Shown one piece after another: positions 2,636 to 51,730 of a stretch of 64,000 nt of DNA. Source of the DNA: Chitinophagaceae bacterium (GTDB lineage Bacteria; Bacteroidota; Bacteroidia; Chitinophagales; Chitinophagaceae); the NCBI GenBank assembly GCA_036564845.1, contig DATCOF010000331.1, positions 944 through 64,943 on the forward strand, read 5' to 3'. A program made the translations under genes and the position numbers. Each line of letters starts with the position of its first letter. The first letter of the stretch is position 1. The notes under the pieces were generated by a model. That model saw only the letters and a program-made list of their open reading frames with translations, was not told the origin of the DNA and made no database searches.

Positions 2636-3487
2636 ATGCTAAAAATTGCTATTCAAAAATCGGGAAGGTTGTATGAGGATTCAATAAAACTTTTAAAAGA
2701 ATGTGGCATTGAATTTAATAATGGTAACAAACAATTAAAAGCTGTGGCTTATAATTTTCCTGTAGAAGTTTATTTTTTCAGGGACGATGACATTCCGCAA
2801 TATGTATATGACGGAGTTGCCGATATAGGTTTTGTTGGTGAAAATGTTTTGCTTGAAAAAGAAAAGGATGTTGACCTTGTTTATCGTCTCGGATTTGGAA
2901 GATGCAGACTGAGTATTGCTGTTCCAAAAAGTATGGCATATAATTCGATCAATGATCTTGATGGATTAAAAATTGCAACTTCCTATTCCTCGATTTTACA
3001 AAAATTTCTCTCAGGGAAAAAAGTGAATGCCGAAATTCATGAGATAAGTGGTTCTGTTGAAATAGCGCCTGGCATTGGGTTAGCAGATGCTATCTGTGAT
3101 TTGGTTAGCAGTGGCAGCACACTTTTTACGAATGGATTAAAAGAAGTTGAAGTTATTTTGCGGTCTGAAGCAGTGTTGTGTGCCAATAAAAATTTATCGG
3201 AAGAGAATAAGAATATTTTGGAAAAATTATTGCTTAGAATTAATGCAGTTAAAGCAGCAAAGAATAACAAATACATATTATTGAATGCCCCCAATCATCA
3301 ACTGAAAAATATTGCTGCAGTGCTGCCCGGCATGAAAAGCCCTACTGTAGTGCCTTTGGCGGAAGAAGGTTGGAGTAGTGTGCAGAGTGTAATAAATGAA
3401 AATGTATTTTGGGAGGTAATCGAAAAATTAAAAGCATTGGGGGCAGAAGGGATTTTAGTTGTACCCATTGAAAAGATGATAATGTAA
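2636..3487 (+). CDS. hisG: ATP phosphoribosyltransferase (long form)
   Basis: LKIAIQKSGRL, RDDDIPQYV, GSVEIAPGIGLADAICDLVSSGSTL. Confidence 0.97.
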   Translation: MLKIAIQKSGRLYEDSIKLLKECGIEFNNGNKQLKAVAYNFPVEVYFFRDDDIPQYVYDGVADIGFVGENVLLEKEKDVDLVYRLGFGRCRLSIAVPKSMAYNSINDLDGLKIATSYSSILQKFLSGKKVNAEIHEISGSVEIAPGIGLADAICDLVSSGSTLFTNGLKEVEVILRSEAVLCANKNLSEENKNILEKLLLRINAVKAAKNNKYILLNAPNHQLKNIAAVLPGMKSPTVVPLAEEGWSSVQSVINENVFWEVIEKLKALGAEGILVVPIEKMIM

Positions 3488-3520
3488 ACCCCTCTAAATC
3501 TCCCCTAAAGGGGAGACTTT
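3486..3520. repeat. CCCCT-AAA-GGGGAG palindromic element, copy 1 (hisG-hisD spacer)
   Basis: aaacccctctaaatctcccctaaaggggagacttt; nearly identical to 51577-51607. Confidence 0.85.
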
Positions 3521-3535
3521 AAAGATTGAAATACT

Positions 3536-4816
3536 ATGCAAATATTTATAAATCCTTCAAGAGAAAAATGGGCTGAGATAATTGAGCGTCCAAAGATCAA
3601 TGATGCCGAACTGAAATTTATTGTCGCTGATATTTTAAAGGATATAAAAGAAAATGGTGATGAGGCAATAAAAAAATACTGCCTGCAGTTTGGCAAAGTT
3701 TTGTTGCACGATCTAAAAGTAAGTGATGCTGAAATTGATGAGGCTGTTAAACTGGTAGATGAAGACCTGAAAGCTGCAATTCAATTAGCGAAAAAAAATA
3801 TTGAAAAATTTCATGCAGCGCAAAAACAGGAAGAGAAAAAAATTGAAACTGCAAAAGGAGTCTTGTGTTGGCGTAAATCTGTAGCCATAGAAAAAGTTGG
3901 CTTATATATTCCCGGTGGGACTGCGCCTCTTTTTTCAACCTTACTAATGCTTGGGATACCCGCTGTGATGGCTGGCTGCAAAGAAATTGTTATTTGTACA
4001 CCATCGGATACTAATGGGAATATCAATCCTGTTATTTTATACACTGCGCAATTATTAGGATTAAAAAATATTTATAAAGTTGGAGGCGTTCAGGCAATTG
4101 CAGCAATGGCTTATGGAAGTGAAAGCATTGAAAAAGTGTATAAAATTTTTGGTCCGGGAAATCAATTTGTTACCTGTGCAAAACAAATGATAAACATGGA
4201 TGGGGTGGCCATTGATATGCCTGCAGGCCCAAGTGAAGTAGCCGTGTATGCTGATGAAAGTTGTGAGCCGGCTTTTGTTGCTTCAGATCTTTTAAGCCAG
4301 GCAGAACATGGCGTTGACAGCAATGTGTTATTAGTTGCTTCATCAGAAAGTATAGTTGAAAAAGTGAAGGAAGAGATCAATGTTCAAATAAAAGATCTGC
4401 CAAGAAAAAATGTAGCTGAAGCAGCCCTCTCAAAAAGTAATTTAGTTGTGATGCAAGATGTTGATGAAGCATTTTGTTTATTGAATGAATATGCAGCAGA
4501 ACATTTGATACTGGCATCTGATAATGCTTCGCAGCTTTCAGAAAAAGTGGTAAATGCAGGCAGTGTTTTTCTCGGAAATTATTCTCCTGAAAGTGTTGGT
4601 GATTATGCATCAGGAACCAATCATACTTTGCCTACCAATGGTTATGCAAAAGCTTATTCAGGCGTTTCGCTGGATAGTTTTGTAAAGAAAATTACTTTTC
4701 AAAAATTAAGTAAAGAAGGACTAAAAAATATTGGTAACGCTGTAGAGCTGATGGCCGCTGCTGAAGGGCTTGATGCACATAAGAATGCAGTATCAATTCG
4801 TTTGAAAAATTTATGA
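3536..4816 (+). CDS. hisD: Histidinol dehydrogenase
   Basis: VGLYIPGG, KIFGPGNQFV, DMPAGPSEV, DLLSQAEH, GDYASGTNHTLPT. Confidence 0.97.
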   Translation: MQIFINPSREKWAEIIERPKINDAELKFIVADILKDIKENGDEAIKKYCLQFGKVLLHDLKVSDAEIDEAVKLVDEDLKAAIQLAKKNIEKFHAAQKQEEKKIETAKGVLCWRKSVAIEKVGLYIPGGTAPLFSTLLMLGIPAVMAGCKEIVICTPSDTNGNINPVILYTAQLLGLKNIYKVGGVQAIAAMAYGSESIEKVYKIFGPGNQFVTCAKQMINMDGVAIDMPAGPSEVAVYADESCEPAFVASDLLSQAEHGVDSNVLLVASSESIVEKVKEEINVQIKDLPRKNVAEAALSKSNLVVMQDVDEAFCLLNEYAAEHLILASDNASQLSEKVVNAGSVFLGNYSPESVGDYASGTNHTLPTNGYAKAYSGVSLDSFVKKITFQKLSKEGLKNIGNAVELMAAAEGLDAHKNAVSIRLKNL

Positions 4817-5871
4817 GTGTTATGAAATTTGAGTTGCAAAAATTGATAAGAGATAATATAAGGAAGCTTACACCTTATTCATCCGCACGCCATGAATTTA
4901 AAGGCGAAGCATCAGTATTTTTAGATGCTAATGAAAATAGTTTTGGCTCGCCGCTGCCTGAAAGTTTTAATCGCTACCCTGATCCTTTGCAATGGCAATT
5001 AAAATTTGAGTTGGCAAAAATTAAAGGAGTTCCTGCAGAATATATTTTTATTGGCAACGGAAGTGATGAAGTTATCGATCTTGCTTATAGGATTTTTTGC
5101 AATCCTAAAAAGGATAATGTGATCCTCTGCCCACCCACTTATGGTATGTATGAAGTGAGTGCGAACATCAATGATGTTGAAATAAGAAAAGTAAATCTTA
5201 CAGAAAATTTTCAATTGGATGTCGATGGGATATTAGCCGCTACTGATCAAAACACAAAACTTCTTTTTATTTGTTCTCCCAACAATCCTACGGGCAATAA
5301 CATGAAAAGGGCAGATGTTGAATTGCTGCTGAATAATTTCCCTGGGATCGTAATTATTGATGAAGCGTATATAAATTTTTCAAGACAAAAAACTTTTATA
5401 CAGGAACTTACTGAATATGAAAATCTCATTGTTATGCAAACGCTTTCAAAAGCATGGGGGCTTGCTTCATTGCGCCTTGGGCTTGCGTTTGCTTCATTGC
5501 CAATAATCGAGATCTTTAATAAGGTAAAACCACCTTACAACATAAATAAAGCATCGCAGGCGTTGGCGATTGAGGCTTTACAAAATACGCAACAGGTTAA
5601 TGACTGGATAAAACAAACAGTTGAGCAAAGAGAATTTCTTATAAAAAAATTATCCGGTTTTTCTTTTGTTAAAAAAATATTTGAGAGTGATGCCAATTTT
5701 TTATTGGTAAGAGTTGGGGATGCACGTGCGTTGTATAATTATCTCTCGCAAAATAAAATTATTGTAAGAAACAGGAGCAAGGAAATAATGTGTGATAATT
5801 GTTTGCGGATAACGATAGGTACTCCTGCAGAAAATCTTGACCTGATAAAAGCATTAAAAAATTATGAGTAA
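4813..5871 (+). CDS. hisC: Histidinol-phosphate aminotransferase
   Basis: [32 protein letters not shown]. Confidence 0.96.
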
Positions 5872-7006
5872 AAAAATATTATTTATCGACAGGGACGGAA
5901 CATTAATTAAAGAGGCACCGCCAACTTATCAGCTGGATTCATTTCCTAAACTGGAGTTTTATCCGCACATGTTTGAATACATGACGAAGATCGCCAAGGA
6001 ACTGGATTATGAATTGCTGATGGTTACAAACCAGGATGGGCTTGGCACTGAGGTGTTTCCTGAAAATACCTTTTGGCCTGTTCATGATTTTATTATGAAG
6101 AGCTTGGAGAATGAAGATATTTTTTTTGATAAAGTATTTATCGACCGAACATTTCCTGCAGACAATGCCCCAACAAGAAAACCGGGGACAGCAATGTTGA
6201 CTGAATATCTCAACAATGAAAATTATGATATCGCAAATTCTTTTGTAATTGGTGATCGCATTACAGATGTTTTGTTGGCAAAAAATATCGGATGTAAAGC
6301 ATTGTGGTTAAATAATCATGATGATCTCGGTGCTACTGAAGTCAAAGCATCAAGCGACGAATTAAAGAATACAATTGCTCTTGAAACAATCAGATGGAAG
6401 GATATTTATGAATTTCTAAAACTTCCATCCCGTAAAGTTTTTCATGAGCGAAATACGAATGAAACAAAAATTGCAATAGAATTAAATTTAGATGGAACGG
6501 GAAAGGCTGATATAAAAACAGGCCTTGCTTTTTTTGATCACATGCTGGAGCAAATTGCAAAGCATGGCAATATTGATCTTGCAATTAAGTGTAATGGTGA
6601 TCTTCATATTGATGAACATCATTCTATTGAAGATGTTGGTATCGCACTTGGAGAAGCCATGGCAAAGGTTTTGGGAAACAAAAGAGGAATTGAACGTTAC
6701 GGATTTTTATTGCCAATGGATGATTGCCTTGCACAGGTCGCTCTTGATTTTGGAGGAAGAAGTTGGCTGGTTTGGGATGCTGAATTTAAAAGAGAAAAGA
6801 TTGGAGAGATGCCGACAGAAATGTTCTATCATTTTTTTAAGTCATTTAGCGATGCTTCAAAATCTAATCTCAATATTAAAGCAGAAGGGCAAAATGAGCA
6901 TCATAAAATTGAATCTATTTTTAAAGCGTTTGCCAAAGCAATAAAAATGGCAGCGAAAAGAGATATAAATAATAATTCACTTCCATCAACAAAGGGAATT
7001 TTATAA
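5864..7006 (+). CDS. hisB: Bifunctional histidinol-phosphatase / imidazoleglycerol-phosphate dehydratase
   Basis: N-terminal HAD motif FIDRDGTL; C-terminal [12 protein letters not shown] and [12 protein letters not shown]. Confidence 0.96.
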
Positions 7007-8322: not shown

Positions 8323-8343
8323 CGAATATTTTAAAAACTGAGT

Positions 8344-9162
8344 ATGAATAATAGTGGCGATAACAGCACATTTCTCAATCTCCCCTTTAGGGGGGCAGGG
8401 GGTGGGTTAACAAAAAGGATCATTCCATGTTTGGATATTAAAGACGGCAGAACCGTAAAGGGTATCAATTTTGAAAATATCCGTGATGCCGGTGATCCGG
8501 TAGAACTCGCAAAATTTTATTCACAGCAGGGCGCAGATGAATTGGTTTTTCTTGATATTACTGCTACGATTGAAAAAAGAAAAACACTTGTTGAGTTTGT
8601 AAAAAAACTCGCTCATAATATCAACATTCCGTTTACAGTTGGTGGTGGAATTTCTTCTGTAGAAAACGTGGCTGAACTTCTGCAACATGGCGCTGATAAG
8701 ATATCTGTTAACACTGCCGCTTATAAAGGTCCTGAGTTAATAAAAAAAATCGCAGATGAATTTGGAAGTCAATGTGTGGTTCTCGCAATTGATACGAAAA
8801 GAGAAGATGATGGAGAATGGTATGTTTATTTAAATGGCGGCAGAACAAAAACGGATACAAAAACAATTGATTGGGCAAAGCACGCTGTTGATCTGGGGGC
8901 TGGCGAAATTTTGCTTACATCAATGAATAATGATGGAACTAAAAACGGATTTGCATTGGACATCACTTCGCTATTGTCAAACGCACTTCCTGTCCCGGTA
9001 ATCGCTTCCGGCGGCGCAGGAACAATGGCACACTTTGTAGAAGTATTTAACAAAGCCAGTGCTGATGCAGCTTTGGCGGCAAGCATCTTTCATTATAAAG
9101 AAATTGAAATACCTGTATTAAAAAATTATTTAAAAGAGAACAATATAAATGTAAGAATATGA
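8344..9162 (+). CDS. hisF: Imidazole glycerol phosphate synthase, cyclase subunit, with a ~20-aa N-terminal extension
   Basis: [39 protein letters not shown]. Confidence 0.96.
8378..8408. repeat. Palindromic element, copy 2, read in frame inside the hisF 5' end
   Basis: atctcccctttaggggggcagggggtgggtt encodes LPFRGAGGG. Its reverse complement shares the cccctaaaggggag core with copy 1. Confidence 0.75.
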
Positions 9163-9764: not shown

Positions 9765-11063
9765 TTATTTAGCCAATAAGAATTCTTTAAAAGAAGCATA
9801 ATCAACATTCATTTTAATGCTTTTCTTTTTTTCTTTCAACAGATCTTTTATTGCGGAAGGCATAGGAACTGCCTGTTCAATTATAGGTTCTACAACATCA
9901 TAAAATTTTACAGGATGTGCTGTCTCCAAAAATATTCCCTGTAGGTCAGGATGAATTTGTAAATATTTTTTTAGCGCTACATATCCAACAGCACCATGCG
10001 GATCGAGTAAATAATTTTTATTTAGAAAAACATCTTTTAGAACTGATCTCGTTTCTTCATCCGAAATGCTATAGCTCGTCAAAACTTTTTTAAGAGAAAT
10101 AAATTCCCTATTAAAAATTTCGAGAATGCGGATAAAATTACTTGGATCACCAACATCCATTGCATTTGATATTGTTGCAACAGATTTTTTAGTAGTATAC
10201 TTTTCTGTTTGCATGTAACTGGGAACAATATCGTTTGCATTACAAGCTGCAATAAAATGCTGTACCGGCAAGCCAGATCGATGCGCTAATATTCCTGCAC
10301 AAATATTTCCGAAATTGCCGCTGGGCACGCTTATTACGGGAAAGTGATCTTTATCCTTCCATTGTTGATAAGCGAAAAAATAATAGAACTGTTGTGGAAG
10401 CCAGCGTGCAACATTGATAGAATTAGCCGAAGTAAGAAATAATTTTTTATTTATTTCATCATCTGTAAAAGCTTTTTTTACCAGCGCCTGGCAATCATCA
10501 AATGTTCCGTCAACTTCTAATGCAGTTATGTTTTTTTCTAAAGTAGTTAATTGTAATTCCTGAACACTGCTCACTTTTCCTGATGGATACAAGATAACAA
10601 CATCAACTCCTTCCACATCATAAAAACCATTGGCAACAGCCCCGCCTGTGTCACCTGAAGTTGCAACAAGAACAGTTATTTTTTTGTTTTGATCTTTTAC
10701 AAAATAGCCAAGACAACGGCTCATAAATCTTGCGCCAACATCTTTAAATGCAAGCGTGGGACCATGAAATAATTCGAGAGAGAAAATATTTTCTTCAACC
10801 TTAACTAATGGAAATTCAAAATTGATTGTTTCTGCAACAATTCTTTCCAATTCATTTTTTGGAATTACATCGCCTATGTAAGGTTGAATAACTGTGTATG
10901 CAATTTCTTCTTTAGAAAGTTTATCAATATTATTGATAAAAATTTCAGATACCTGCGGAATGCTTTCAGGAAAGTATAATCCTTTGTCCGGCGCCTGTCC
11001 TTTGATGGTCGCTTCTTTAAAGTTTACTATTGGCGAGTTATGATTGGTACTGTGGTAAAGCAT
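9765..11063 (-). CDS. thrC: Threonine synthase
   Basis: ELFHGPTLAFKDVGARF, ATSGDTG, SVPSGNFGN, LETAHPVKF. Confidence 0.97.
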   Translation of the reverse strand: MLYHSTNHNSPIVNFKEATIKGQAPDKGLYFPESIPQVSEIFINNIDKLSKEEIAYTVIQPYIGDVIPKNELERIVAETINFEFPLVKVEENIFSLELFHGPTLAFKDVGARFMSRCLGYFVKDQNKKITVLVATSGDTGGAVANGFYDVEGVDVVILYPSGKVSSVQELQLTTLEKNITALEVDGTFDDCQALVKKAFTDDEINKKLFLTSANSINVARWLPQQFYYFFAYQQWKDKDHFPVISVPSGNFGNICAGILAHRSGLPVQHFIAACNANDIVPSYMQTEKYTTKKSVATISNAMDVGDPSNFIRILEIFNREFISLKKVLTSYSISDEETRSVLKDVFLNKNYLLDPHGAVGYVALKKYLQIHPDLQGIFLETAHPVKFYDVVEPIIEQAVPMPSAIKDLLKEKKKSIKMNVDYASFKEFLLAK

Positions 11064-11091
11064 TGTGATATTTTAATATTTTCTGTCTTTT

Positions 11092-11149
11092 GGTTTGGTG
11101 ATGACACCAACCGCGGAGAGCCGCCGTGACCGGTGTCCCCACCAGTCAC
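11092..11149. repeat. Pair of short REP-like hairpins (GGTG-N4-CACC core) between thrB and thrC
   Basis: ggtttggtg-atga-caccaacc (11092-11112) and gtgaccggtg-tccc-caccagtcac (11126-11149). Confidence 0.6.
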
Positions 11150-11162
11150 TTCTAAGATTGGT

Positions 11163-12089
11163 CTATGATTCTTCTGTAATTGTAATCCCGTGGTTATTTA
11201 TTGTTGTAACATAAGTATGGTAGGCCAATCTCATGCTGTCATAAATTTCTTTCATTATAATTTCTACATCATGGGCAATATTTTCTTGCTTGCATAACAT
11301 AAAAATAGAAGGTCCTGAACCCGCAATGCCACCGCCTAATGCACCTGCTTCCATACATCTTTTCTTTACTTCATCAAAGCCGGGAATTAAAATACTTCTG
11401 ACAGGTTCAATGATCACATCTTCAAGACTGCGACTAATTAATCCATAATCATTCTGCATAAAACCTGTAACCAGTCCTGCAATATTTCCCCATTGTTTAA
11501 TAGCATCTTTCAACAAAACTTCTTTACGAAGGATTTCTCTTGCATCAGAAGTCTTTACTTCTATCTGCGGATGCACAACTGCTACAAACATTGGCGGAGC
11601 ATGCAAAGGAATTATATCCAAAGGAAAAATAGAACGGATAAGTGTTACGCCCCCATAAATACATGGTGAAATATTATCCGCATGTTTTACGCCGGATGCA
11701 AGTTTTTCTCCTGCCATCGCAAAGCGAACAAGGTCTTCTTTAGAAAATTTATTTCCAAGTAAATGATTGGCTGCAACAACAACCCCTGCTGCGCTTGCAG
11801 CGCTGGAGCCAAGGCCACTACCGGGTTTTATATGTTTTTCTATGATGATATCGAAGCCAACCGGAGTATCCAATTCCTGTATTAATTCGAGCAGTGAAAC
11901 GCCTGCAACATTTTTTTCAGGAATTGTGGGGAGATTGTAAATGTCATTGTGCTGAATACGAACACCGGGTTCATCACTAAGTGTGATCTGCATAATATCC
12001 TGCGGATCATTTAATGCCATACCTATCACATCAAAACCACAAACTAAATTGGCAATAGTTGCAGGTGATTTTATTTTTACAGATGTCAT
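11163..12089 (-). CDS. thrB: Homoserine kinase
   Basis: PATIANL, GHMP-kinase motif IKPGSGLGSSAAS, HADNISP, GSGPS. Confidence 0.96.
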   Translation of the reverse strand: MTSVKIKSPATIANLVCGFDVIGMALNDPQDIMQITLSDEPGVRIQHNDIYNLPTIPEKNVAGVSLLELIQELDTPVGFDIIIEKHIKPGSGLGSSAASAAGVVVAANHLLGNKFSKEDLVRFAMAGEKLASGVKHADNISPCIYGGVTLIRSIFPLDIIPLHAPPMFVAVVHPQIEVKTSDAREILRKEVLLKDAIKQWGNIAGLVTGFMQNDYGLISRSLEDVIIEPVRSILIPGFDEVKKRCMEAGALGGGIAGSGPSIFMLCKQENIAHDVEIIMKEIYDSMRLAYHTYVTTINNHGITITEES

Positions 12090-15903: not shown

Positions 15904-17007
15904 TTATTTGACAGCTTCTTTTACATTCTTGTCTTTAAGCTGCGGAGAATCTTCAACAGGCTTTTGGTTTTCGGGACGTAAACTTCTTACCGTCTTTCCT
16001 GTCTGCCACAATTCACTGTCACGCAATTCTTTTAGTTCCACTTCCAGTTTTTCCCTGTAATCCGCTTTGCTGTTGCTTTCTATTGAACGTGTTGCTTCTC
16101 TGCCTGCAGCAACTTCAGCATATAATTCTTTAAACACCGGCGATGTTGCATCACGGAATTTTTTCCACCAATCCAAAGCACCACGCTGTGCTGTAGTTGA
16201 ACAATTTGCATACATCCAATCCATACCATTCTCTGCAACCAATGGCATTAATGATTGTGTAAGTTCTTCAACAGTTTCATTAAATGCTTCGGAAGGAGAG
16301 TGGCCATTTGCTCTCAACACATCATATTGTGCTGCAAATATTCCCTGTATCGCACCCATAAGTGTTCCTCTTTCTCCGGTGAGATCTGAGTAAACTTCTT
16401 TCTTGAAATTTGTTTCAAATAAATATCCTGAACCAATTGCAATGCCTAATGCAGCAACTCTTTCAAAAGCTCTTCCTGTTGCATCCTGGAAGATCGCATA
16501 ACTACTATTCAATCCACGTCCCTGCAAAAACATTCTGCGTAAAGATGTTCCTGAACCTTTTGGTGCTACTAAAAAAACGTCAACATCTTTTGGTGGAATA
16601 ATGCCTGTTTGATCATTATAGGTTATGCCAAAGCCATGAGAAAAATATAAGGCTTTGCCCGGTGTTAAATGTTTTTTTACCGTTGGCCACATTGCAATTT
16701 GTGCAGCATCACTAAGTAAATAACAAATGATGGTTCCTTTCTCCAAAGCTTCTTCAATTTCAAAAAGTGTTTTGCCTTCTACAAAACCATCACGTACGGC
16801 TTTGTCCCAGCTTTTTGAATTTTTTCTCTGCCCTACAATTACATTTATGCCGTTTTCTTTTTGATTTAGCGCCTGTCCCGGTCCCTGAACACCGTAGCCA
16901 ATAACCGCTACCACTTCATCTTTCAGTACTTCCTGTGCTTTTGATAATGGGAATTCTTCACGGGTTACCACATTCTCCTGTGTGCCGCCAAAATTTAATG
17001 TTGCCAT
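15904..17007 (-). CDS. ilvC: Ketol-acid reductoisomerase
   Basis: IGYGVQGPGQALN, VAPKGSG, SDLTGERGTLMG. Confidence 0.96.
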   Translation of the reverse strand: MATLNFGGTQENVVTREEFPLSKAQEVLKDEVVAVIGYGVQGPGQALNQKENGINVIVGQRKNSKSWDKAVRDGFVEGKTLFEIEEALEKGTIICYLLSDAAQIAMWPTVKKHLTPGKALYFSHGFGITYNDQTGIIPPKDVDVFLVAPKGSGTSLRRMFLQGRGLNSSYAIFQDATGRAFERVAALGIAIGSGYLFETNFKKEVYSDLTGERGTLMGAIQGIFAAQYDVLRANGHSPSEAFNETVEELTQSLMPLVAENGMDWMYANCSTTAQRGALDWWKKFRDATSPVFKELYAEVAAGREATRSIESNSKADYREKLEVELKELRDSELWQTGKTVRSLRPENQKPVEDSPQLKDKNVKEAVK

Positions 17008-22052: not shown

Positions 22053-22054
22053 AA

Positions 22055-23788: not shown

Positions 23789-25261
23789 TTAATTTAAAAG
23801 AGTTCTTACATCTGTTACAACACCTGTTATTGCTGAGGCTGCTGCCGTTAAAGGACTTGCCAATAACGTTCTTGCACCTGCTCCCTGTCTTCCTTCAAAA
23901 TTTCTATTGCTGGTAGAGATGCAATATTCGCCTGCAGGAATTTTATCTTCATTCATTCCCAAACATGCGCTGCATCCGGCTTGCCGCACTTCAAAGCCTG
24001 CGGCTTCAAAAACTTTGTCAAGACCTTCAGCTATAATTTGTGCGGCCACCTGTTGCGATCCGGGCACGATCATCACCTTTACATTATCACTTTTCTTTTT
24101 GCCTTTTACAACACCTGCTACCAAGCGAAGATCTTCTATCCTTGAATTGGTGCAGCTTCCTATAAAAATATTTTGCACCGGCATCCCCAATAAAGTTTTG
24201 CCTTGTTGCAGTCCCATATATTCAAGCGCTTTTAAAATATTTTTTCTTTCGCCTTCATCAGGAATACTTTCTGCAGTTGGTATCAATCCATTTATCGCGA
24301 TGCCTAACCCGGGGTTGGTGCCGTAAGTTATCATCGGCTCAATGTCTGCTGCATTTATATTTATTTCCTTGTCAAAAACTGCATTATCATCTGTGCGCAG
24401 TTCCTTCCATTCTTTTAATTTTTTATCCCACTCTTCTCCCTGCGGAGCAAACTTTCTTCCTTTTATATAATCGAATGTTACTTCGTCTGGCGCTATCATT
24501 CCGCCTCTTGCACCCATCTCGATACTCATGTTACAAATGGTCATTCTTGCTTCCATAGATTGCGCCCTGATAGCAGAACCTGCATACTCTACAAAATATC
24601 CTGTTGCACCACTTGCTGTTATTTTTGAAATGATGTAAAGAATAATATCTTTTGAAACAACACCTTTGTTTAACTCGCCATTAATATTTATCCTCATCAC
24701 TTTTGGCCTGCTTTGCAAAACACATTGTGATGCAAAAACCATTTCAACTTCTGATGTTCCGATACCGAAAGCAATTGAACCAAATGCACCATGGGTAGAT
24801 GTATGGCTATCGCCGCAAACGATTGTCATTCCCGGTTGAGTGATCCCTAACTCAGGTCCTATCACATGAACTATTCCCTGGTAAGGGTGACCCAAACCAT
24901 ACAATTCTATCCCATGTTTATTGCAGTTGGTAATTAATTGGTCTACCTGTAATCTTGATAACATATCTTTTATAGGCAGCTGTTGATTTACGGTGGGCAC
25001 ATTGTGATCGGCAGTGGCTACAATGTTTTGCGGACGAAATAATTTAAATCCTCTTTTCTCAATTCCGGCAAATGCCTGCGGGCTTGTTACTTCGTGGATA
25101 AAATGTTTGTCGATATAAATAACATCAGGCCCTTCAGGGATTGTTTTTACCAAATGCTTTTGCCAAATTTTTTGAAATAAAGTAGTAGCCTCCCCTAAAT
25201 TCCCTCCGGTGGAGGGGCCTTTTGAAGATCCTAATTCTTTGCCGTTCTTTTCTATTTCCAA
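23789..25261 (-). CDS. leuC: 3-isopropylmalate dehydratase large subunit, with a ~24-aa N-terminal extension
   Basis: [54 protein letters not shown]. Confidence 0.97.
25188..25222. repeat. Palindromic element, copy 3, read in frame inside the leuC 5' end
   Basis: gcctcccctaaattccctccggtggaggggccttt encodes [12 protein letters not shown] on the minus strand. Confidence 0.72.
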
Positions 25262-25320: not shown

Positions 25321-26493
25321 TCACGCAATACTTGGTTCAGACTTTTTGTATTGTTTTGCAAGTTGTAATAAATTCTCTTCTTTTATTTCTTTGTGTATGT
25401 CAGCTAATTTTAAAAACTCTTCATATAACACATCAATATCATTGCGTGTAAATTCATATCCTAAGTTTTTAAACCGGAATGCAAGTGCACTGCGGCCACT
25501 TCTGGCAGTAAGTACAATTTTGCTTTCTTCAGCGCCAACTTCTTCAGGGTCGATACTTTCGTAAGTGAGTTTATCTTTTAAAAATCCATCCTGGTGAATA
25601 CCTGAAGAATGCGAAAATGCATTTGACCCCACAATTGCTTTGTTAGGTTGCACGGGCATACGCATGGTATCAGAAACGAGTTTGCTCATAGGGTTCAGCA
25701 TCTTTGCGTTGATGTTTGTATAAAGCCCAAGATGTTTGTGTTGCCTTAATATCATCACAACTTCTTCAAGAGAAGTGTTGCCGGCTCTTTCTCCCAAACC
25801 ATTTATCGTACACTCAATTTGGCGTGCACCATTTATAACACCTTCAATAGAATTTGCTGTTGCCAAACCCAGATCGTTATGGCAATGACAGGAGATTACG
25901 GCTTTATCAATGTTGGGAACATTGTTGACGAGGTAAGCGATCTTTTCTCCATACTGTTGTGGAAGGCAATAACCTGTTGTGTCAGGAATATTTACTGTTG
26001 TTGCGCCAGCTTTAATAACCGCTTCAATTACTCTTGCCAAATATTCATTGTCGGTTCTTCCTGCATCCTCGGCATAAAATTCTACATCATCAGTAAAATT
26101 GCGTGCCCATTTTACACATTGGATCGCTCTTTCCAAAATCTCATTCTGTGTGGAATTAAATTTACTTTTTATGTGATGATCTGACGTGCCGATACCTGTG
26201 TGAATTCTTGGGCGCTTTGCATATCGTAAAGCTTTTGCCGCTACTTCAATATCATTTTGAACAGCACGGGTTAGTGCACAAACGGTGGCATTTTTAATTA
26301 TGCGTGATATTTCGGTCACCGATTCAAAATCGCCGGGGCTTGAAACAGGAAATCCGGCCTCAAGAATATCCACTCCAAGTGCTTCAAGCTCTAAAGCGAG
26401 TTCAGTTTTCTCTTTTGTATTTAACTTACACCCCGGAACCTGTTCGCCATCCCGTAGCGTTGTGTCAAAAATGAAGACTTTATTTTCATGCAT
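25321..26493 (-). CDS. leuA: 2-isopropylmalate synthase, short form lacking the C-terminal regulatory domain
   Basis: [31 protein letters not shown]. Ends at 390 aa. Confidence 0.92.
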
Positions 26494-41667: not shown

Positions 41668-43554
41668 ATGGCAAAAATAGGGATCAACATTGCAACCGGT
41701 AGTTTGCAAAAAGAAGAAATAATTGTTGGGATCGATCTTGGCACCACCAATAGCCTTATAGCAATCATACACCCGGAAACCAAACAGGCAGTGGCTTTAA
41801 AGGAACACAACAGCAGTTCATTGGTTCCATCAATTGTTTATTTTGATGAGCAGGGAAATGTAACTGTTGGCGAAGAAGCAAAACAATATTTGATCACTGA
41901 ACCACAGAACACGATTTTTTCTGCAAAACGATTGATGGGAAAATCTTACAATGACATCAAGAGCAACAGTTCATTTTTTACTTATAAAATTATTGATGAT
42001 AATACAGAGAGCCTTGTAAAAATTCAGGTAGGAAATAAATTTTATTCACCGGTTGAACTGTCTTCTTTTATTTTAAAAGAACTAAAACAAAGAGCTGAGC
42101 ACATTTTAAAAACACCGGTGAACAAAGCTGTAGTTACAGTTCCTGCATATTTTAATGATGCACAGAGACAGGCAACACGTGATGCCGGAAAGCTTGCCGG
42201 GCTTGATGTTTTAAGGATCATCAATGAGCCAACAGCAGCCAGTCTTGCATATGGAATTGGGCTGCATAAAGAAGATCACAAAACAATTGCAGTGTATGAT
42301 CTTGGTGGTGGCACTTTTGATATTTCTATTTTAAGGATATCAAACGGCATCTTTGAAGTGCTTTCCACCAACGGCGATACTTATCTTGGCGGTGATGATT
42401 TTGATAATGCAATAGTAAAGTTTTGGTTGCAGCAATTATCGGTTAGTGAAGATGAATTAAAGAATAATAAAGAGTTTGCACAAGCCATCAGGCTAAAGGC
42501 TGAAGAAGCAAAAAAATACCTTTCTGATAATGAAATTTTTGTGGGTGAGGTGCTTTACTCCTTCCCCTCCGGGGGAGGTTGGGAGGGGGCTTTAAAAATT
42601 TCCAAAACAGAATTTGAAGAACTCATTCGTCCATCAATTGATAAAACAATTGCAGCGTGTAAAAATGCTTTGAAGGATGCAAACCTTACAGCAACAGATA
42701 TTGAAGTGATAGTAATGGTTGGCGGTTCAACAAGAATTCCTTTTGTGAATAAAACCATTTCTGATTTTTTTGGAAAGCAGGTAAATGATTCAATGAACCC
42801 TGAAGAAGTGGTTGCTCTGGGAGCTGCGCTGCAGGCCGATATTTTAGCAGGAAATAATAAAGATTTTTTGTTACTGGATATTACGCCTCTTTCATTAGGT
42901 ATTGAAACTCGTGGAGGATTGATGGACATTTTAATTCCGAGAAATTCCAAGATTCCAACAAAGGCATCGCGGCAATATACAACACAGGTTAACGGGCAAA
43001 GCGGAATTAAAATTTCTGTTTTCCAGGGAGAAAGAGATCTTGTAAATGATAATAGGAAGCTTGCTGAATTTAATTTAACCAACATACCGGCAATGCCTGC
43101 GGGGTTGCCAAAAGTTGAGATCTCTTTTTTAATAAATGCTGACGGTATTTTAATTGTAAAAGCGAAAGAACTAAGAAGTAGTGTTGAGCAAAGTATTGAA
43201 GTGCAGCCGCAGTATGGGTTAACAGATCAGCAGGTTGAACAAATGTTACTGGAATCTATCACGCATGCAAAAGATGATATTGCCACAAGAGCCTTGCTGG
43301 AAGCAAGAACAGAAGGAGAGCAATTGTTGGAAACTACTGAAAAGTTTATTCAAAAAAATGCCAAAGAGTTATCGTCTGAAGAACTGGTTACGACTGCAGA
43401 AGCTATGCAGGCTTTGCAATTGGCGCTTACAATGGAGGACAAAGATCTTATTCATTCAAAGATCGAAGAACTTAATAATCTCTCACGGCCATATGCAGAA
43501 AGAATAATGGATAAGGCTGTATCAAAAGCTATGAAGGGGAAAGCGATCTCCTGA
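41668..43554 (+). CDS. hscA: Hsp70-family chaperone, HscA-like
   Basis: [44 protein letters not shown]. The N-terminus [11 protein letters not shown] and short C-terminus differ from DnaK. Confidence 0.82.
42558..42593. repeat. Palindromic element, copy 4, in-frame insertion inside hscA
   Basis: ctccttcccctccgggggaggttgggagggggcttt is a GC-rich island in an AT-rich gene and encodes [11 protein letters not shown]. Confidence 0.75.
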
Positions 43555-45625: not shown

Positions 45626-45651
45626 TTGCTAAAAATACATTTTTACAATAT

Positions 45652-47269: not shown

Positions 47270-47297
47270 GCAGATAGTTTAGATGTAAATTTATAAT

Positions 47298-47879
47298 TTA
47301 GGCTAATAATCTTTGCACATATTTCCCCAGCATATCAAATTCTATATTAACTTTTGAACTTTCTTCAACAGATGATAAGTTAGTATGTTCTAAAGTGTAA
47401 GGTATAATTGCAACCGTAAACTTTTTTTTGCGGACATTAAAAGCAGTCAGGCTTATGCCATTTACACAAACTGAGCCTTTTTCAATAATTAATGAAGCAA
47501 ATTTCTTTTTAAATGTAAAAGTAAACTCAGTACTTCCATTTAGTATTTTTTTGTCAATGCAAATTGCTGTTGTATCTACATGGCCCTGTACAATATGCCC
47601 ATCTATCCGGCCATTCATTTGCATTGGCCTTTCAAGATTTACAATGTCACCTACTTTCCAATCATCCAAATTAGTTTTAATAAGGGTTTCATTGATGGCA
47701 GTTACTTTATGAGCGCTTTCTTTTATTTCTTCTATAGTAAGGCAAACACCATCATGGCTTATACTTTCATCAATATTTAATTGTGAGGATATAGGGCTTT
47801 CTATCCAAAATGTTTTATTAGATCCATTTATACTTATACTTTTTATCTTCCCCAGGTCTTCAATAATTCCGGTAAACAT
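47298..47879 (-). CDS. ribE: Riboflavin synthase alpha chain
   Basis: Diagnostic MFTGII N-terminus, VNLER, GHIVQGHVD, VNIEFD. Confidence 0.96.
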   Translation of the reverse strand: MFTGIIEDLGKIKSISINGSNKTFWIESPISSQLNIDESISHDGVCLTIEEIKESAHKVTAINETLIKTNLDDWKVGDIVNLERPMQMNGRIDGHIVQGHVDTTAICIDKKILNGSTEFTFTFKKKFASLIIEKGSVCVNGISLTAFNVRKKKFTVAIIPYTLEHTNLSSVEESSKVNIEFDMLGKYVQRLLA

Positions 47880-47942
47880 GTTAATTATTTATGCGAATTT
47901 CGTATTTCATTATTAGAATTTCGATAATTAAAAATTTCCAAT

Positions 47943-47950
47943 TACCTTTG
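47943..47950 (+). promoter_or_regulatory. -7 promoter element for rpsU
   Basis: TACCTTTG matches TAnnTTTG. Confidence 0.65.
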
Positions 47951-47983
47951 TCCTCCAAAAAATAATAAAAAGAAAAATATTTT

Positions 47984-48181
47984 ATGCTCATTATTGATTC
48001 TAAAGACTGCGAAAACATAGACAAAGCACTTAAAAAGTACAAAAAGAAATTTGAGAAAAGTAAAGTTCTATTGCAGCTAAGAGAGCGCCAGGCATTTATT
48101 AAGCCATCTATCCGCCGCAGGGGACAGGTTTTAAAAGCCGTTTATAAGCAGCAAATAGCAAGCGGTAAAATAGAAATTTAA
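47984..48181 (+). CDS. rpsU: 30S ribosomal protein S21
   Basis: ENIDKALKKYKKK...LRERQAFIKPSIRRR. Confidence 0.93.
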   Translation: MLIIDSKDCENIDKALKKYKKKFEKSKVLLQLRERQAFIKPSIRRRGQVLKAVYKQQIASGKIEI

Positions 48182-48253
48182 TATGTAGATATTTCAACCA
48201 GCATTATATTGCCGGTAGCTTTTAAGGTTTAACTTTGGGCTTCCGGTTTTTTT

Positions 48254-49153
48254 ATGCACTCAACCCAAACCTCTATACAAACCTTTTTAGATTATCTCAA
48301 ATTTCAAAAACGGTATTCACAGCATACAATTATTTCGTATGAAAATGATCTAAAAGATTTTTTTGATTTTATAGAAACCAACTACGGACAACTTTCTTTA
48401 ACCGAGATCTCCACTACATTAGTAAGAACCTGGCTTGCAAATTTGAAGCAGAATAAAATTGTACCTAAAAGTATCAATAGAAAAATATCAACATTAAAAT
48501 CATTTTTTAAATACCAGTTAAGAAAAGAAACGATTGCTGTAAGCCCCATGGCTACTATTGTTTCGCTTAAAGTAAACAAGCGTTTACCATCTTTTATTGA
48601 AGAAAAAGATATGGACACTTTATTTCAGCATGTTGAATTTCCTGATACGTGGGAAGGGAAAACCAATCGCCTGATGTTGCAAATATTTTATCAAACCGGT
48701 GTGCGGTTAAGTGAACTGATTAATTTAAAAGAATCGCAAATTGATAAGGGCTATAGTAATTTAAAAGTTTTAGGGAAAAGAAATAAAGAAAGAATAATCC
48801 CGATAAACAATTTATTGCTTTACCCGATTTTGGAATATATAAATGCAAAGAGAAATAATATTGAAATTTTTGATACTGAATATTTGTTGATAAGCGAAAA
48901 AGGGAAAAAATTACAGCCGAAATATGTGTATAATAAAGTAAAACAATATCTCGGATACGTAACTACCAACGAAAGAAAGAGTCCGCATATTTTACGCCAC
49001 AGCTTTGCCACTCACTTAACTAATAATGGCGCTGACATTAATGCGGTAAAGGAATTGCTGGGGCACAGCAGTTTAGCTGCTACTCAAATTTATACGCATA
49101 ACAGTATTGAAAAACTAAAAGATATTCATAAAAAAACACATCCTAAATCCTGA
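48254..49153 (+). CDS. xerC: Tyrosine recombinase XerC-like (chromosomal)
   Basis: R-K-H-R-H-Y residues in GVRLSEL, GKRNKER, HILRHSFATH, LLGHSS and TQIY. Conserved rpsU-xer-hpf context. Confidence 0.8.
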   Translation: MHSTQTSIQTFLDYLKFQKRYSQHTIISYENDLKDFFDFIETNYGQLSLTEISTTLVRTWLANLKQNKIVPKSINRKISTLKSFFKYQLRKETIAVSPMATIVSLKVNKRLPSFIEEKDMDTLFQHVEFPDTWEGKTNRLMLQIFYQTGVRLSELINLKESQIDKGYSNLKVLGKRNKERIIPINNLLLYPILEYINAKRNNIEIFDTEYLLISEKGKKLQPKYVYNKVKQYLGYVTTNERKSPHILRHSFATHLTNNGADINAVKELLGHSSLAATQIYTHNSIEKLKDIHKKTHPKS

Positions 49154-49316
49154 AAATTTCATATTCAATAAAACAATATTTTGAAAAAATCGTTCATAAT
49201 CCTAACTTCATGATCTTAACTACATAATCCAATTGCATACATAATCCCATTTGCCTATGCCCTTGTAAATTTTACCTTCTAATTATTATTGTTCACTGAT
49301 TAAATTTAAGATTACT

Positions 49317-49616
49317 ATGAACGTAAACATTCAAACATTGCATTTTGAGGCAGACACAAAACTGGTATCGTATGTAGAGAAAAAGCTCTCGAAGCTTGCC
49401 CAGTTTCATGAAAGAATTACAAAAGTTGATGTATTTTTAAAACTAGACAATGTAGTTCACAACATTAAAGACAAGATCGCAGAAATTAAAGTACATGTTC
49501 CCCGCCATGATTTTTTTGTAAAACATTCTTCTAAATCTTTTGAAGAAAGTTTTGATACAGCTCTCGATTCTGTTATCACACAAATAAAACGAAAGAAAGA
49601 AAAATTAGCAGCTTAA
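49317..49616 (+). CDS. hpf: Ribosome hibernation promoting factor (HPF/RaiA family)
   Basis: 99 aa; YVEKKLSKL...FEESFDTALDSVITQIKRKKEK. Confidence 0.88.
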   Translation: MNVNIQTLHFEADTKLVSYVEKKLSKLAQFHERITKVDVFLKLDNVVHNIKDKIAEIKVHVPRHDFFVKHSSKSFEESFDTALDSVITQIKRKKEKLAA

Positions 49617-49620
49617 TAAT

Positions 49621-49652
49621 AAAAAATCTCCCGAAACCGGGAGATTTTTTTT
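49621..49652 (+). terminator. Intrinsic terminator after hpf
   Basis: AAAAAATCTCCCG-AAAC-CGGGAGATTTTTTTT. Confidence 0.88.
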
Positions 49653-49745
49653 GCCATTCACTTTTTATCTTTTTGCAGTGAAATTTATTCTGCGATTCTA
49701 CATTAAAATTTCTATTTCAAAATTTTTGCATTAAACATTTTCCAT

Positions 49746-49753
49746 TACCTTTG
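49746..49753 (+). promoter_or_regulatory. -7 promoter element for the tRNA-tuf operon
   Basis: TACCTTTG, with TTTTG about 20 nt upstream. Confidence 0.65.
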
Positions 49754-49828
49754 CCTTCCCAAAAAACACCCTGTAAAAGTTTGTTTTAACGGGAAGTTCT
49801 TTGCAGGTGTGAGTTTAACATTAAATAT

Positions 49829-49848
49829 CAGTGTAGCTCAGTTGGTCA
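49829..49848 (+). repeat. 20-nt duplicate of the 5' end of tRNA-Thr(TGT)
   Basis: cagtgtagctcagttggtca versus cagtgtagctcagttggcca at 49917-49936 (19/20 identical). Confidence 0.8.
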
Positions 49849-49914
49849 TTGCTTTCCCAATATTGTTGAGATAATTAAGTTTTGAAACAATTTTTTTGAG
49901 AAAATTAATAAAAT

Positions 49915-49988
49915 GCCAGTGTAGCTCAGTTGGCCAGAGCAGCTGATTTGTAATCAGCTGGTCGGGGGTTCGAATCCCTCCACTGGCT
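49915..49988 (+). tRNA. tRNA-Thr(TGT)
   Basis: Acceptor stem GCCAGTG/CACTGGC, anticodon arm gctga-tt-TGT-aa-tcagc, GTTCGAA T-loop. No encoded CCA. Confidence 0.95.
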
Positions 49989-49998
49989 CTAAAAAATT

Positions 49999-50081
<83 letters not shown>

Positions 50082-50133
50082 CAGTTCTTTGAATTCCAAA
50101 ATTGGAATTTCAAATTTTGAAATTAGGTAATAA

Positions 50134-50206
50134 GCGGAAGTAGCTCATTTGGTAGAGCGGTAGCCTTCCAAGCTTCAGGTGGCCGGTTCGAGCCCGGTCT
50201 TCCGCT
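50134..50206 (+). tRNA. tRNA-Gly(TCC)
   Basis: GCGGAAG/CTTCCGC, anticodon loop ct-TCC-aa, one U-U mismatch in the anticodon stem. Confidence 0.9.
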
Positions 50207-50222
50207 CATACTTTTTTATCAA

Positions 50223-50294
<72 letters not shown>

Positions 50295-50388
50295 CTAATT
50301 TTTTTGAGCATTCCTGAGTAGGGAATTTATTAGAATCAAAAAATTATAAAATAATCTTTTTAATAAACAATTATAAAACAAAAATAAA

Positions 50389-51576
50389 ATGGCAAAAGAG
50401 AACTTTAAAAGGGATAAACCCCACGTTAACGTTGGTACTATCGGTCACGTTGATCATGGTAAAACAACATTGACCGCCGCTATAACCGATATTTTGTCTA
50501 AAAAAGGTTTGGCGGAAAAGAAAAATTATGATGAGATTGATGGTGCACCTGAAGAAAAGGAAAGGGGTATCACTATTAATACAGCTCACGTTGAATATGC
50601 AACGGTTGCCCGTCACTATGCACACGTTGATTGTCCGGGGCACGCCGATTATGTGAAGAACATGATCACAGGTGCTGCTCAAATGGATGGCGCAATCTTA
50701 GTAGTTGCTGCTACGGATGGTCCTATGCCGCAAACTAAAGAACACATTCTTTTGGCTCGCCAGGTTGGTGTTCCAAGAATCGTTGTATTTATGAATAAAG
50801 TTGATCTTGTTGATGACCCGGAATTATTGGAACTGGTAGAAATGGAAATTCGTGAGTTACTAACTTCTTACGGATTTGATGGTGATAATACACCTATCAT
50901 CCAGGGTTCTGCAACAGGAGCTTTAGCAGGAGATGAAAAGTGGACAGCAAAAATCGATGAATTAATGGATGCTGTTGATACTTATATTCCATTACCTCCA
51001 CGTCCGGTTGATCAACCATTCCTTATGAGTGTTGAGGATGTATTCTCAATTACAGGTCGTGGTACAGTTGCTACAGGTCGTATTGAAAGAGGAAGAATTA
51101 AAGTTGGTGAGCCAGTTGAAATTGTAGGTTTAATGGAAAAGCCATTACAATCTGTAGTTACAGGTGTTGAGATGTTTAAGAAACTTTTGGATGAAGGTGA
51201 AGCTGGCGATAACGCAGGGTTGTTATTACGTGGTATTGAGAAGAACCAGATCCGTCGTGGAATGGTACTTTGTAAGCCGGGTTCAATTACTCCGCATACT
51301 GAATTTAAAGGTGAGGTTTACGTATTAAGCAAAGAAGAAGGTGGACGTCATACTCCATTCTTCCAAAAGTACCGCCCTCAGTTTTATTTCCGTACTACAG
51401 ATGTTACCGGTGAAGTAGAACTTAACCCTGGAACTGAAATGGTTATGCCTGGGGATAACACGAACCTTACTGTTAAGTTGATTCAGCCAATTGCAATGGA
51501 AAAAGGTTTGAAGTTTGCAATTCGTGAAGGTGGCCGTACAGTAGGTGCAGGACAGGTTACAGAAATTTTAAAATAA
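50389..51576 (+). CDS. tuf: Elongation factor Tu
   Basis: [23 protein letters not shown]. Confidence 0.99.
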
Positions 51577-51607
51577 AAACCCTCTAAATCTCCCTAAAGG
51601 GAGACTT
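51577..51607. repeat. Palindromic element, copy 5, immediately after the tuf stop
   Basis: aaaccctctaaatctccctaaagggagactt. Confidence 0.85.
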
Positions 51608-51628
51608 AGGAAAGTTTCATAAATTTGC

Positions 51629-51660
51629 AAAGTACCTTGGGGTAATACCTTTGGTACTTT
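51629..51660 (+). terminator. Hairpin after tuf
   Basis: AAAGTACC...GGTACTTT followed by gttatt. Confidence 0.6.
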
Positions 51661-51700
51661 GTTATTAATAAAAGTTCTTTAAATAATTCGAACCTTCATA

Positions 51701-51730
51701 AGCCTCCCTTTAGGGAGGTTTGGAGGGTTT
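51701..51730. repeat. Palindromic element, copy 6, inverted relative to copy 5, 3 nt before tRNA-Trp
   Basis: agcctccctttagggaggtttggagggttt; reverse complement aaaccctccaaacctccctaaagggaggct. Confidence 0.85.

Follow-up and report, generated by a model that had tools for sequence, protein, structure and literature searches.

Six copies of a GC-rich repeat of ~35 bases are scattered over a 64,000-nucleotide stretch of a Chitinophagaceae bacterium genome (assembly GCA_036564845.1, contig DATCOF010000331.1, positions 944 to 64,943; the whole stretch is referred to below as the window), three of them within the reading frames of hisF, leuC and hscA. Our comparative analysis leads us to regard these copies, with moderate confidence, as nuclease-less members of a family of repeats with a triplex-type architecture, the autonomous form of which would be a selfish unit built around a DUF559 endonuclease gene. 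This reading draws on the architecture of the repeat and the covariation of its arms, its spread across a phylum, filled and empty versions of the same site, copies and whole units carried in frame by conserved proteins, and the polar flanking of DUF559 genes. Of these results we value the DUF559 link most highly, as it offers a testable origin for a long-unexplained class of repeats: the BoxC repeats of Escherichia coli, later termed PIT (potential intrastrand triplex) and then TMECO (PMC4666352), have been known for ~30 years without an assigned origin, mobility gene or function, and their connection with DUF559, the family that includes E. coli YcjD, opens that origin to biochemistry and mobility assays. 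A first-pass annotation of the window had interpreted the repeat as a palindromic, non-autonomous element that is mobilised in trans and generates new protein segments in this lineage, an interpretation that our results support in part.

Architecture and spread of the repeat

All six copies were verified, at positions 3486, 8378, 25188, 42558, 51577 and 51701, just as they had been annotated. Read on its G-rich strand, a window copy comprises a pyrimidine arm (CTCCCC or a near variant), a loop of 3–4 nt, the complementary purine arm (GGGGAG), a spacer (TTTA, ATTTA or TT) and a third arm (GAGGGG) that mirrors the first purine arm instead of complementing it; elements overall measure 30–40 bp. 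Pyrimidine arm, loop and complementary purine arm are present in all six copies and the strict mirror third arm, by structural scan, in five. The earlier description as a palindrome therefore holds for the hairpin part but not for the whole, since a mirror third arm is present. The three intergenic copies are perfect. Copy 1 (3486–3520, arms 3489–3516, minus strand) reads TCTCCCC-TTTA-GGGGAGA-TTTA-GAGGGG on the G-rich strand and CCCCTC-TAAAT-CTCCCC-TAAA-GGGGAG-ACTTT on the plus strand, copy 5 (51577–51610, arms 51580–51604, minus strand) lies 3' of tuf, and copy 6 (51700–51731, arms 51703–51727, plus strand) is inverted relative to copy 5. The three coding copies, by contrast, are more diverged: copy 2 (8378–8408, arms 8380–8406, plus strand), in the N-terminal extension of hisF, is degenerate (CTCCCC-TTTA-GGGGGG-CA-GGGGGTGGG) its decay showing in one G·T wobble and a flawed third arm; copy 3 (25188–25222, arms 25189–25217, minus strand), in the leuC frame, reads CCCTCC-ACC-GGAGGG-AATTTA-GGGGAGG; and copy 4 (42558–42591, arms 42566–42589, plus strand), inside hscA, reads CCTCC-GGG-GGAGG-TT-GGGAGGGGG.

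The window has a G+C content of 36%, and longer homopolymers of C or G are rare in it, with 8 runs of five C and 12 runs of five G in 64 kb. The structural scan (pyrimidine arm, loop of 3–7, complementary purine arm, loop of 2–7, mirror third arm) recovered five copies at arm length 5 and four at arm length 6, whereas the mean chance expectation over 200 dinucleotide-matched simulations was 0.04 and 0.0, respectively; a relaxed scan of the window returned the same five copies and no additional one. Rfam at gathering thresholds recognised five tRNAs in the window and gave no match to the elements. Low-complexity sequence and the weakness of the hisF copy when taken by itself could be held to favor a chance likeness of G/C runs, or a peptide motif selected at the protein level. 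Given the five copies observed against 0.04 expected, the identical architecture in non-coding spacers, the existence of orthologues without the insert and a nucleotide-level family that covers hundreds of loci, the probability of such an account is negligible.

We scanned a genome collection with a single pattern derived from copies 1, 5 and 6, so that the proportions reported from it hold among the matches listed and not genome-wide. At least 120 stretches were retrieved, nearly all from Bacteroidota, and the matches listed include Mucilaginibacter, Chitinophagaceae, Prevotella, Prolixibacteraceae, Paludibacter, Flavobacteriaceae and Sphingobacterium. The repeat family is Bacteroidota-wide and its architecture was already known from BoxC/PIT/TMECO, which overturns the notion of a lineage-specific process. 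The conserved unit, A(G/A)CC...(A/G)CTT(T), spans ~35–39 nt, beyond which the flanks are random; their profiles show conserved ends only, with no target-site duplication or target motif. Within the unit, the two Y positions that the pattern leaves unspecified change together, as TT or CC, in 135 of 136 matches, and the opposite purine follows in 124. In asymmetric stems, which the pattern did not select, the third arm mirrors the stem in 41 cases and is a direct repeat in 2; the mirror rule spans 15 distinct stem variants, the third arm never stands on the wrong side, and it carries A or T at A·T pairs and G opposite G. Judged from the sequences, these rules are those of an antiparallel purine-motif triplex, and the mirror relation is not explicable by Watson–Crick pairing or by a symmetric protein dimer. 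A single G-rich strand could accordingly be expected to fold as a purine-motif intrastrand triplex, as BoxC/PIT/TMECO does in vitro, and such triplexes may form in vivo. In the literature searched, neither the element sequence itself nor palindromic in-frame elements in Bacteroidetes are reported.

By the architecture that their sequences imply, these repeats belong to the BoxC/PIT/TMECO kind. The BoxC/PIT repeats are said to go back to work by Bachellier in the 1990s and by Hoyne and Maher in 2000. TMECO elements follow the pattern CCCTCNCCC-N3-6-GGGNGAGGG-N3-GGGNGAGGG and form a stable intrastrand triplex as single-stranded DNA, as established by circular dichroism and nuclear magnetic resonance; E. 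coli K-12 carries 23 copies, always intergenic and including five inverted pairs, and the paper of Holder et al. (2015) that describes them is silent on Bacteroidetes and on coding copies (PMC4666352). Shared with these elements are the three-block architecture, a short second loop that is often TTA, a third arm set by purine-motif rules, and many dispersed copies with frequent inverted pairs and no transposase close by. Variants at two of our loci (L121 and L095; CCCTCT-cctttgg-AGAGGG-tt-GGGTGAGG) are almost the E. coli sequence, and the pairing of type A with type B in E. coli resembles the mixed-subtype ends of the units described below. The differences lie in arm length (9 nt in E. coli, 5–7 nt here, the 9-nt consensus being unmatched by the window copies), in placement (E. 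coli copies are intergenic, whereas three of the six window copies and 30 of 167 others, ~1/5, lie in reading frames) and in the published work, which makes no tie to DUF559 (ycjD) or any mobility gene.

DUF559 genes between inverted elements

The first-pass annotation had noted neither a transposase nor an endonuclease gene in the window, and we likewise found none there. Outside the window, a nuclease gene does lie between inverted copies. In the LeuS gene of a Mucilaginibacter (L031), two inverted elements enclose an in-frame segment of 165 residues that is a DUF559 domain (PF04480, E=2e-32), and at a further locus (L016) a DUF559 gene is preceded by two elements. We then turned to an unbiased set of 59 metagenome loci, fetched by DUF559 protein similarity alone. 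Element density in these loci is 3.90/kb within 200 bp of the DUF559 gene versus 0.15/kb in the remaining 284 kb, a 26-fold difference, and the arrangement is polar: upstream of the gene the C-rich strand is on the gene strand by 36:5, and downstream the G-rich strand by 36:8. At least one element lies within 150 bp in 42 of the 59 loci, and 24 have both canonical ends according to a strict detector. In these units the third arms point outward and the hairpins inward, the ends lie 1–60 bp from the DUF559 frame, and the two ends of one unit may differ in sequence subtype with the architecture kept. The bracketed gene has 110–130 codons; its motif RRQH..D.(I/V)DF...E.DG..H...D..R is conserved, and none of 47 sequences contains an internal stop. 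The closest solved structure to this partner is an endonuclease-like protein of Neisseria gonorrhoeae (PDB 3HRL, E=2e-20), and a survey of PD-(D/E)XK proteins groups VSR, DUF559 and DUF2726 together, along with the homing endonuclease I-Bth0305I (PMC3239194).

Nearly half of the units (27/57) are embedded in frame in large host frames. IleS hosts them in five loci at a site between AMPYAQWHYPF and ADFIAEGVDQTR, LeuS at two different sites, both of which are filled in one locus (L155), and the other hosts comprise MetRS, MetH, an IcmF-like mutase, and type I and type IIG restriction-modification proteins. All 27 embedded units, like every element lying deep in a coding frame, leave the host frame open on both sides. 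As with inteins and homing endonucleases, a nuclease gene here stands in frame at conserved sites of essential genes (aminoacyl-tRNA synthetases, MetH), and I-Bth0305I shares the Vsr-related nuclease fold (PMC3239194). Unlike inteins, the unit junctions have no splicing residues, and there is no intron; repeat-encoded Pro/Gly/Ser linkers are found instead, as in L031, where NPA is followed by PSKSPP at one junction and LEGA by EYAY at the other. To all appearances, the embedded insert stays in the host protein. In two metagenome LeuS genes (L143, L144), one unit is accompanied by extra solo elements at further sites of the same protein.

Under the explanation we favor, the complete unit, namely two inverted elements with third arms outward around a gene for a DUF559 (Vsr-like, PD-(D/E)XK) endonuclease, would be an autonomous selfish element whose nuclease acts on the folded ends and catalyses movement; the combination of variable sequence and constant architecture suggests that structure is what is recognised. 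Solo elements and short inverted pairs would then be derivatives, either of the kind of miniature inverted-repeat transposable elements (MITEs) or produced by deletion, arising through mobilisation in trans or through loss of the unit's middle. MITEs are matched in that inverted ends are shared with DUF559 units and in the nuclease-less pair at 51577–51731, and they differ in that no target-site duplication is visible here in the hscA pair or the flank profiles. Of the earlier claim of a non-autonomous element mobilised in trans, the dispersed repeat with presence and absence at given sites is borne out; mobilisation in trans is still conjectural, and some solo copies may be remnants.

This last point can be taken further: most solo copies, those in hscA, hisF and leuC included, might be footprints of DUF559 units that lost their middle. 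The same MetH linker holds a solo element in one locus (L070) and a full unit in another (L158), an in-frame inverted pair with a gap of only 8 codons exists (L066), as do "two-armed" elements, in which a single hairpin has a third arm on either side (L130, L143, L154), and the hairpins of the two inverted unit ends are direct repeats of one another, so that deletion by slippage is possible. Yet no unit-sized insert occurs among the best 120 relatives each of HscA, HisF and LeuC, units are far fewer than solo copies, and perfect solo copies occupy very short spacers, for instance the 48 nt between hisG and hisD; on balance we consider a footprint origin for most copies doubtful, though deserving of serious attention.

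The arrangement also invites comparison with the repetitive extragenic palindromic (REP) sequences, their inverted doublets (REPINs) and the associated RAYT transposases. Those repeats, too, are GC-rich imperfect palindromes of 20–40 bp that occur singly or as inverted pairs, and they derive from the flanks of a single-copy gene and are presumably mobilised in trans by its product. The partner here, however, is a PD-(D/E)XK protein (DUF559) and not a Y1 HUH transposase, a mirror arm is present, coding copies are common, and the elements do not carry the GTAG/CGTC tag of REPs (PMC3733652). A conventional repeat of the REP or MITE type, mobilised by a classical transposase (RAYT/IS200-type or another insertion sequence) encoded elsewhere, with DUF559 as a passenger or neighbour, could account for solo copies far exceeding DUF559 units, for inverted pairs that look like REPINs or MITEs, and for the lack of elements at some DUF559 genes. 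But no transposase family recurs beside the elements in the 120 loci listed, where the recurring neighbours are ABC ATPases, histidine kinases, short-chain dehydrogenases/reductases and SusC, and no Y1 (IS200/IS605-like) transposase flanked by repeats recurs in the flanks of these loci. Together with the missing REP tag and a polar, two-ended DUF559 arrangement in four phyla that is hard to explain for a passenger gene, this makes a transposase-driven origin unlikely.

The four phyla emerge once the survey is extended beyond Bacteroidota. In Deinococcus, perfect inverted elements stand on both sides of a plasmid-borne DUF559 gene located in the paa operon; on cyanobacterial plasmids, DUF559 genes are flanked likewise by C5/G5-type motifs, and one DUF559 is embedded in a 4.8-kb gene. 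In E. coli K-12, ycjD is the only DUF559 gene; a remnant arm overlaps its stop codon, and a bona fide BoxC in canonical orientation lies ~170 nt downstream. With 23 copies in 4.6 Mb, a BoxC next to ycjD by chance is unlikely (~0.003, a rough estimate). Between ycjD and this BoxC, in the ycjD–fabI region (L184, ~16290–16370), there is a duplicated ycjD 3' fragment of ~80 nt that suggests a past rearrangement at the unit. Downstream of the N. gonorrhoeae DUF559 gene (L186, 2007–2705), a tandem array with a period of ~281 bp contains several triplex-type motifs per unit. We are evenly divided on the broader proposition that DUF559 genes in inverted triplex-type repeats form a widespread new selfish class (Bacteroidota, Cyanobacteriota, Deinococcota, Pseudomonadota), found in frame in IleS, LeuS, MetRS and MetH, of which BoxC/PIT/TMECO and the window copies would be derivatives. 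In the literature searched, which fell short of many subscription journals, DUF559 is not linked to repeats or mobility and coding copies are unreported; the DUF559–repeat link seems undescribed, a prior description being possible.

Several observations weigh against a DUF559-driven family. The window contains no DUF559 gene, and among the matches listed, themselves the product of a single-pattern scan, DUF559 occurs in only 2 of the ~120 element-selected loci, which puts solo copies over units at roughly 80:1 and makes spread in trans an assumption. More distant DUF559 genes, ~1/4 of the 59 loci, have no detectable elements, and neither a target-site duplication nor a defined cleavage site was found in the hscA pair or the flank profiles. 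For the E. coli elements, the last detailed study, that of Holder et al., detected a TMECO triplex neither in duplex DNA nor by footprinting in vivo, and stated explicitly that the surroundings of TMECO contain no mobility genes (PMC4666352); in 3378 of 5426 E. coli genomes ycjD occupies the same single locus, and hence it gives no sign of recent movement in that species. Finally, the translation of the coding inserts described below is deduced from open frames and missing alternative start codons.

Elements within protein-coding frames

The clearest coding case is copy 4 in hscA (41668–43554, plus strand), which encodes an Fe-S cluster chaperone of the HSP70 family. The copy corresponds to residues ~297–308 of 628, is in frame, and adds a net 27 nt relative to empty orthologues, most close relatives having 619 residues. 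In the alignment, an HscA that is 94% identical (P0004) has no residues where the window carries the element peptide, and at the DNA level the site holds a clean 36-nt insert in L004 and is empty in L002 and L003 (94% identical at the protein level). Among the best 120 relatives the site is filled in 11, always with identical position, orientation and frame; on their neighbor-joining tree the filled and empty states need at least 8 changes, and the nearest neighbors of the window protein (P0004, P0005) are empty. The inserts differ by whole codons (9, 12 and 14 residues), and no target-site duplication is visible at the filled/empty pair. Such patchy presence at one site fits homing-like copying, allele exchange or repeated precise loss. 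An AlphaFold model built from a shallow alignment, of poor quality as a whole (mean predicted local distance difference test score, pLDDT, of 55), puts the insert at a beta-hairpin tip, where pLDDT falls to <50 at residues 302–304, a hint that it may form a loop.

HscA relatives also harbor a second mini-element, unrelated to the first and absent from the window: a perfect GC hairpin of 21 bp (CTGCCTGCCGGACAGGCAGGT), giving LPAGQAG or LSTGQAG when read in frame, which is inserted in different relatives at a total of three HscA sites. It is found twice in L185 (10151–10171 and 10391–10411; HscA relative P0034) and also in P0042, P0045, P0054, P0056, P0106, P0113 and P0120 and in the LeuC relative P0250; in one LeuC relative it is nested within a triplex element (GGDL-PTGQAGL-AEA). 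Two further HscA relatives (P0035 and P0069) carry another insert of 9–10 residues, NARLNDTVGQ, elsewhere in the protein (alignment columns 102–110).

The copies in hisF and leuC are of a different nature. Copy 2 reads LPFRGAGGG within a 22-codon N-terminal extension of hisF (8344–9162, plus strand), a gene that starts at its sole available in-frame start, ATG 8344; no in-frame start codon exists downstream of the copy. Copy 3 sits between leuA (25321–26493) and the conserved TLFQKIW start region of leuC (23789–25261, minus strand), for which TTG 25261 alone could serve as an in-frame start ahead of the conserved N-terminus. The ancestral Met codon is replaced in the window by GGG in hisF and by ACT in leuC. 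Relatives of both proteins fall into short forms (for LeuC, e.g. MGKTLFEKIW) and forms extended by 16–30 residues that contain element-encoded peptides (SPPSGGFRG, VSPxGGDLEGA). One LeuC relative (P0241) keeps the old Met immediately after the element, which indicates that the element landed just 5' of the start codon; with the old starts lost and only ATG 8344 and TTG 25261 left, functional HisF and LeuC would be obtained only by reading through the element. On these sequence grounds, the two copies are N-terminal extensions made at the old start codon and not protein-internal insertions. The first-pass annotation had placed all three copies inside their proteins: the hscA copy is indeed internal, with empty orthologous sites, but those in hisF and leuC lie at the extreme 5' end of the frame, where orthologues differ by short versus extended N-termini rather than by an internal gap. 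Its further points that the coding copies share one orientation, with the G-rich strand coding in 3/3 and the peptides as it quoted them, and that in-frame copies add Pro/Gly-rich stretches to conserved proteins, are both confirmed.

The placement of elements across Bacteroidota was assessed for 167 elements in loci of ≤46% G+C, among the matches listed. Thirty lie deep in stop-free frames of ≥200 codons, 20 at a frame edge, mostly N-terminal as in hisF and leuC, and 91 are intergenic. Hosts of the deep copies, as read from translations, include SMC, IleS, LeuS, MetH-like, anthranilate-synthase-like and alpha-2-macroglobulin-like proteins, and an IcmF-like mutase hosts three copies. The orientation and frame bias suspected from the window recurs among these further copies: the G strand is coding in 20 of the 30 deep copies and the C strand in 10, and one frame dominates, (K)[VA]SPxGG[DG]LEGA in 21 of 43 pattern matches, which is also that of the window HscA and LeuC peptides. 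As stop codons exclude just one frame per orientation, the frame bias exceeds what stop avoidance alone would give. Read in this frame, the G-rich strand would yield a flexible Ser/Pro/Gly linker (VSPxGGDLEGA), which could explain the shared orientation and the related peptides of HisF, LeuC and HscA. We envisage that selection retains copies after stop codons, in operon spacers, in variable loops or at N-termini, and that coding copies survive only if their length and frame leave the host frame open.

Could the coding copies instead go untranslated, either because ribosomes bypass them, in the manner of mitochondrial byp elements or T4 gene 60, or because they are excised from the transcript? 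In Magnusiomyces mitochondria, GC-rich hairpin inserts in AT-rich genes are bypassed. Here, the frame is open on both sides of every deep copy and all embedded units, HscA inserts vary by whole codons, element-encoded peptides drift like protein sequence, and we found no instance of an element that divides a gene out of frame. The nine candidates inspected for such a split proved to be separate neighboring genes, some of them using the element TAA as a stop, and were rejected as cases for the bypass model. Since no out-of-frame insertion was found, a bypass or splicing model is without support, and we judge it highly improbable. At some loci (e.g. L010, 4233–4261), the element TAA (CCC CTC TAA) serves as the stop of the upstream gene, the last two residues of which, P-L, are element-encoded.

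The closest parallel for the outcome is offered by the Rickettsia palindromic elements (RPEs), which the first-pass annotation had invoked and which likewise are non-autonomous palindromic repeats lying in frame in conserved genes, adding a peptide, with empty orthologues, as for HscA and many other hosts here. Structure and size do not carry over, RPEs being ~100–150 bp long, confined to Rickettsia and without a mirror third arm or nuclease gene, so that the resemblance appears to be one of outcome only, an analogy, and a relation in sequence is not to be expected; no mobilising enzyme is known for them. Yeast mitochondrial GC clusters and fungal and sponge mitochondrial hairpin elements (PMC2800124) are similar in being short GC-rich hairpins in AT-rich genomes, some in frame, and differ in being organellar and unrelated in sequence, neither a triplex-type mirror arm nor a partner nuclease having been described for them. 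Essential proteins of Bacteroidota routinely carry repeats and whole nuclease units in frame, and thereby gain new protein segments and inserted domains in a way that is comparable to RPEs and inteins but mechanistically different. The same elements set a trap for annotation, in the form of false N-terminal extensions, odd aminoacyl-tRNA synthetase lengths and low-complexity "SPxGGxLEGA" peptides.

Intergenic copies and neighboring features

In the window, copy 1 begins 2 nt past the hisG stop codon (3485–3487), in the 48-nt hisG–hisD spacer of the his operon. Copy 5 begins 3 nt past the tuf stop codon (51574–51576), and copy 6 ends 2 nt 5' of tRNA-Trp (51734–51805); as an inverted pair (51577–51731), they enclose ~90 nt without a reading frame, which has the layout expected of a putative DUF559 unit derivative without its nuclease. 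The syntenic tuf–tRNA spacer of one relative (L002) differs and contains neither copy 5 nor copy 6. In metagenome and metatranscriptome contigs of relatives, tuf is connected at its end to tRNA-Trp with 51579–51732 skipped, the intervening letters being unread and the boundaries imprecise; the metatranscriptome contigs matching the tuf region stem from diverse relatives, and the sequencing runs containing the window are DNA metagenomes.

Across the matches listed, 15 intergenic copies lie between convergent genes versus 3 between divergent ones, and relative to the upstream gene 28 are co-directional and 17 opposite, the co-directional ones at a median of 3.5 nt past the stop codon; the C-form of the element is often trailed by a T run. 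This preference for the 3' ends of genes, echoed by copies 1 and 5 directly behind hisG and tuf, is what would be expected of a host-serving signal, a terminator or a 3'-end stabiliser of mRNA, that spread by its usefulness, with the coding copies as accidents. However, three window copies fall inside operons (hisG–hisD, copy 1; hisA–hisF, copy 2; leuA–leuC, copy 3), where termination would do harm; these positions speak against a strong terminator, and the PIT/TMECO elements acted neither as promoters nor as terminators (PMC4666352). As such a signal would also leave the mirror arm, the DUF559 flanking and the in-frame copies unexplained, we think it improbable as the origin of the family and retain the nuclease-associated selfish element as the preferred explanation.

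Two other GC-rich features of the window deserve mention. At 49628–49650, 3' of an open reading frame (ORF) at 49317–49616 whose counterpart in L001 belongs to the ribosome hibernation factor family, a terminator-like hairpin (CTCCC-gaaacc-GGGAG followed by T8) has the same CTCCC/GGGAG arms as the repeat, without the third arm. Between the minus-strand ORFs 9765–11063 and 11163–12089, a 39-nt GC-rich island (11105–11143; CACCAACCGCGGAGAGCCGCCGTGACCGGTGTCCCCACC) is without an Rfam match and is not of the triplex type.

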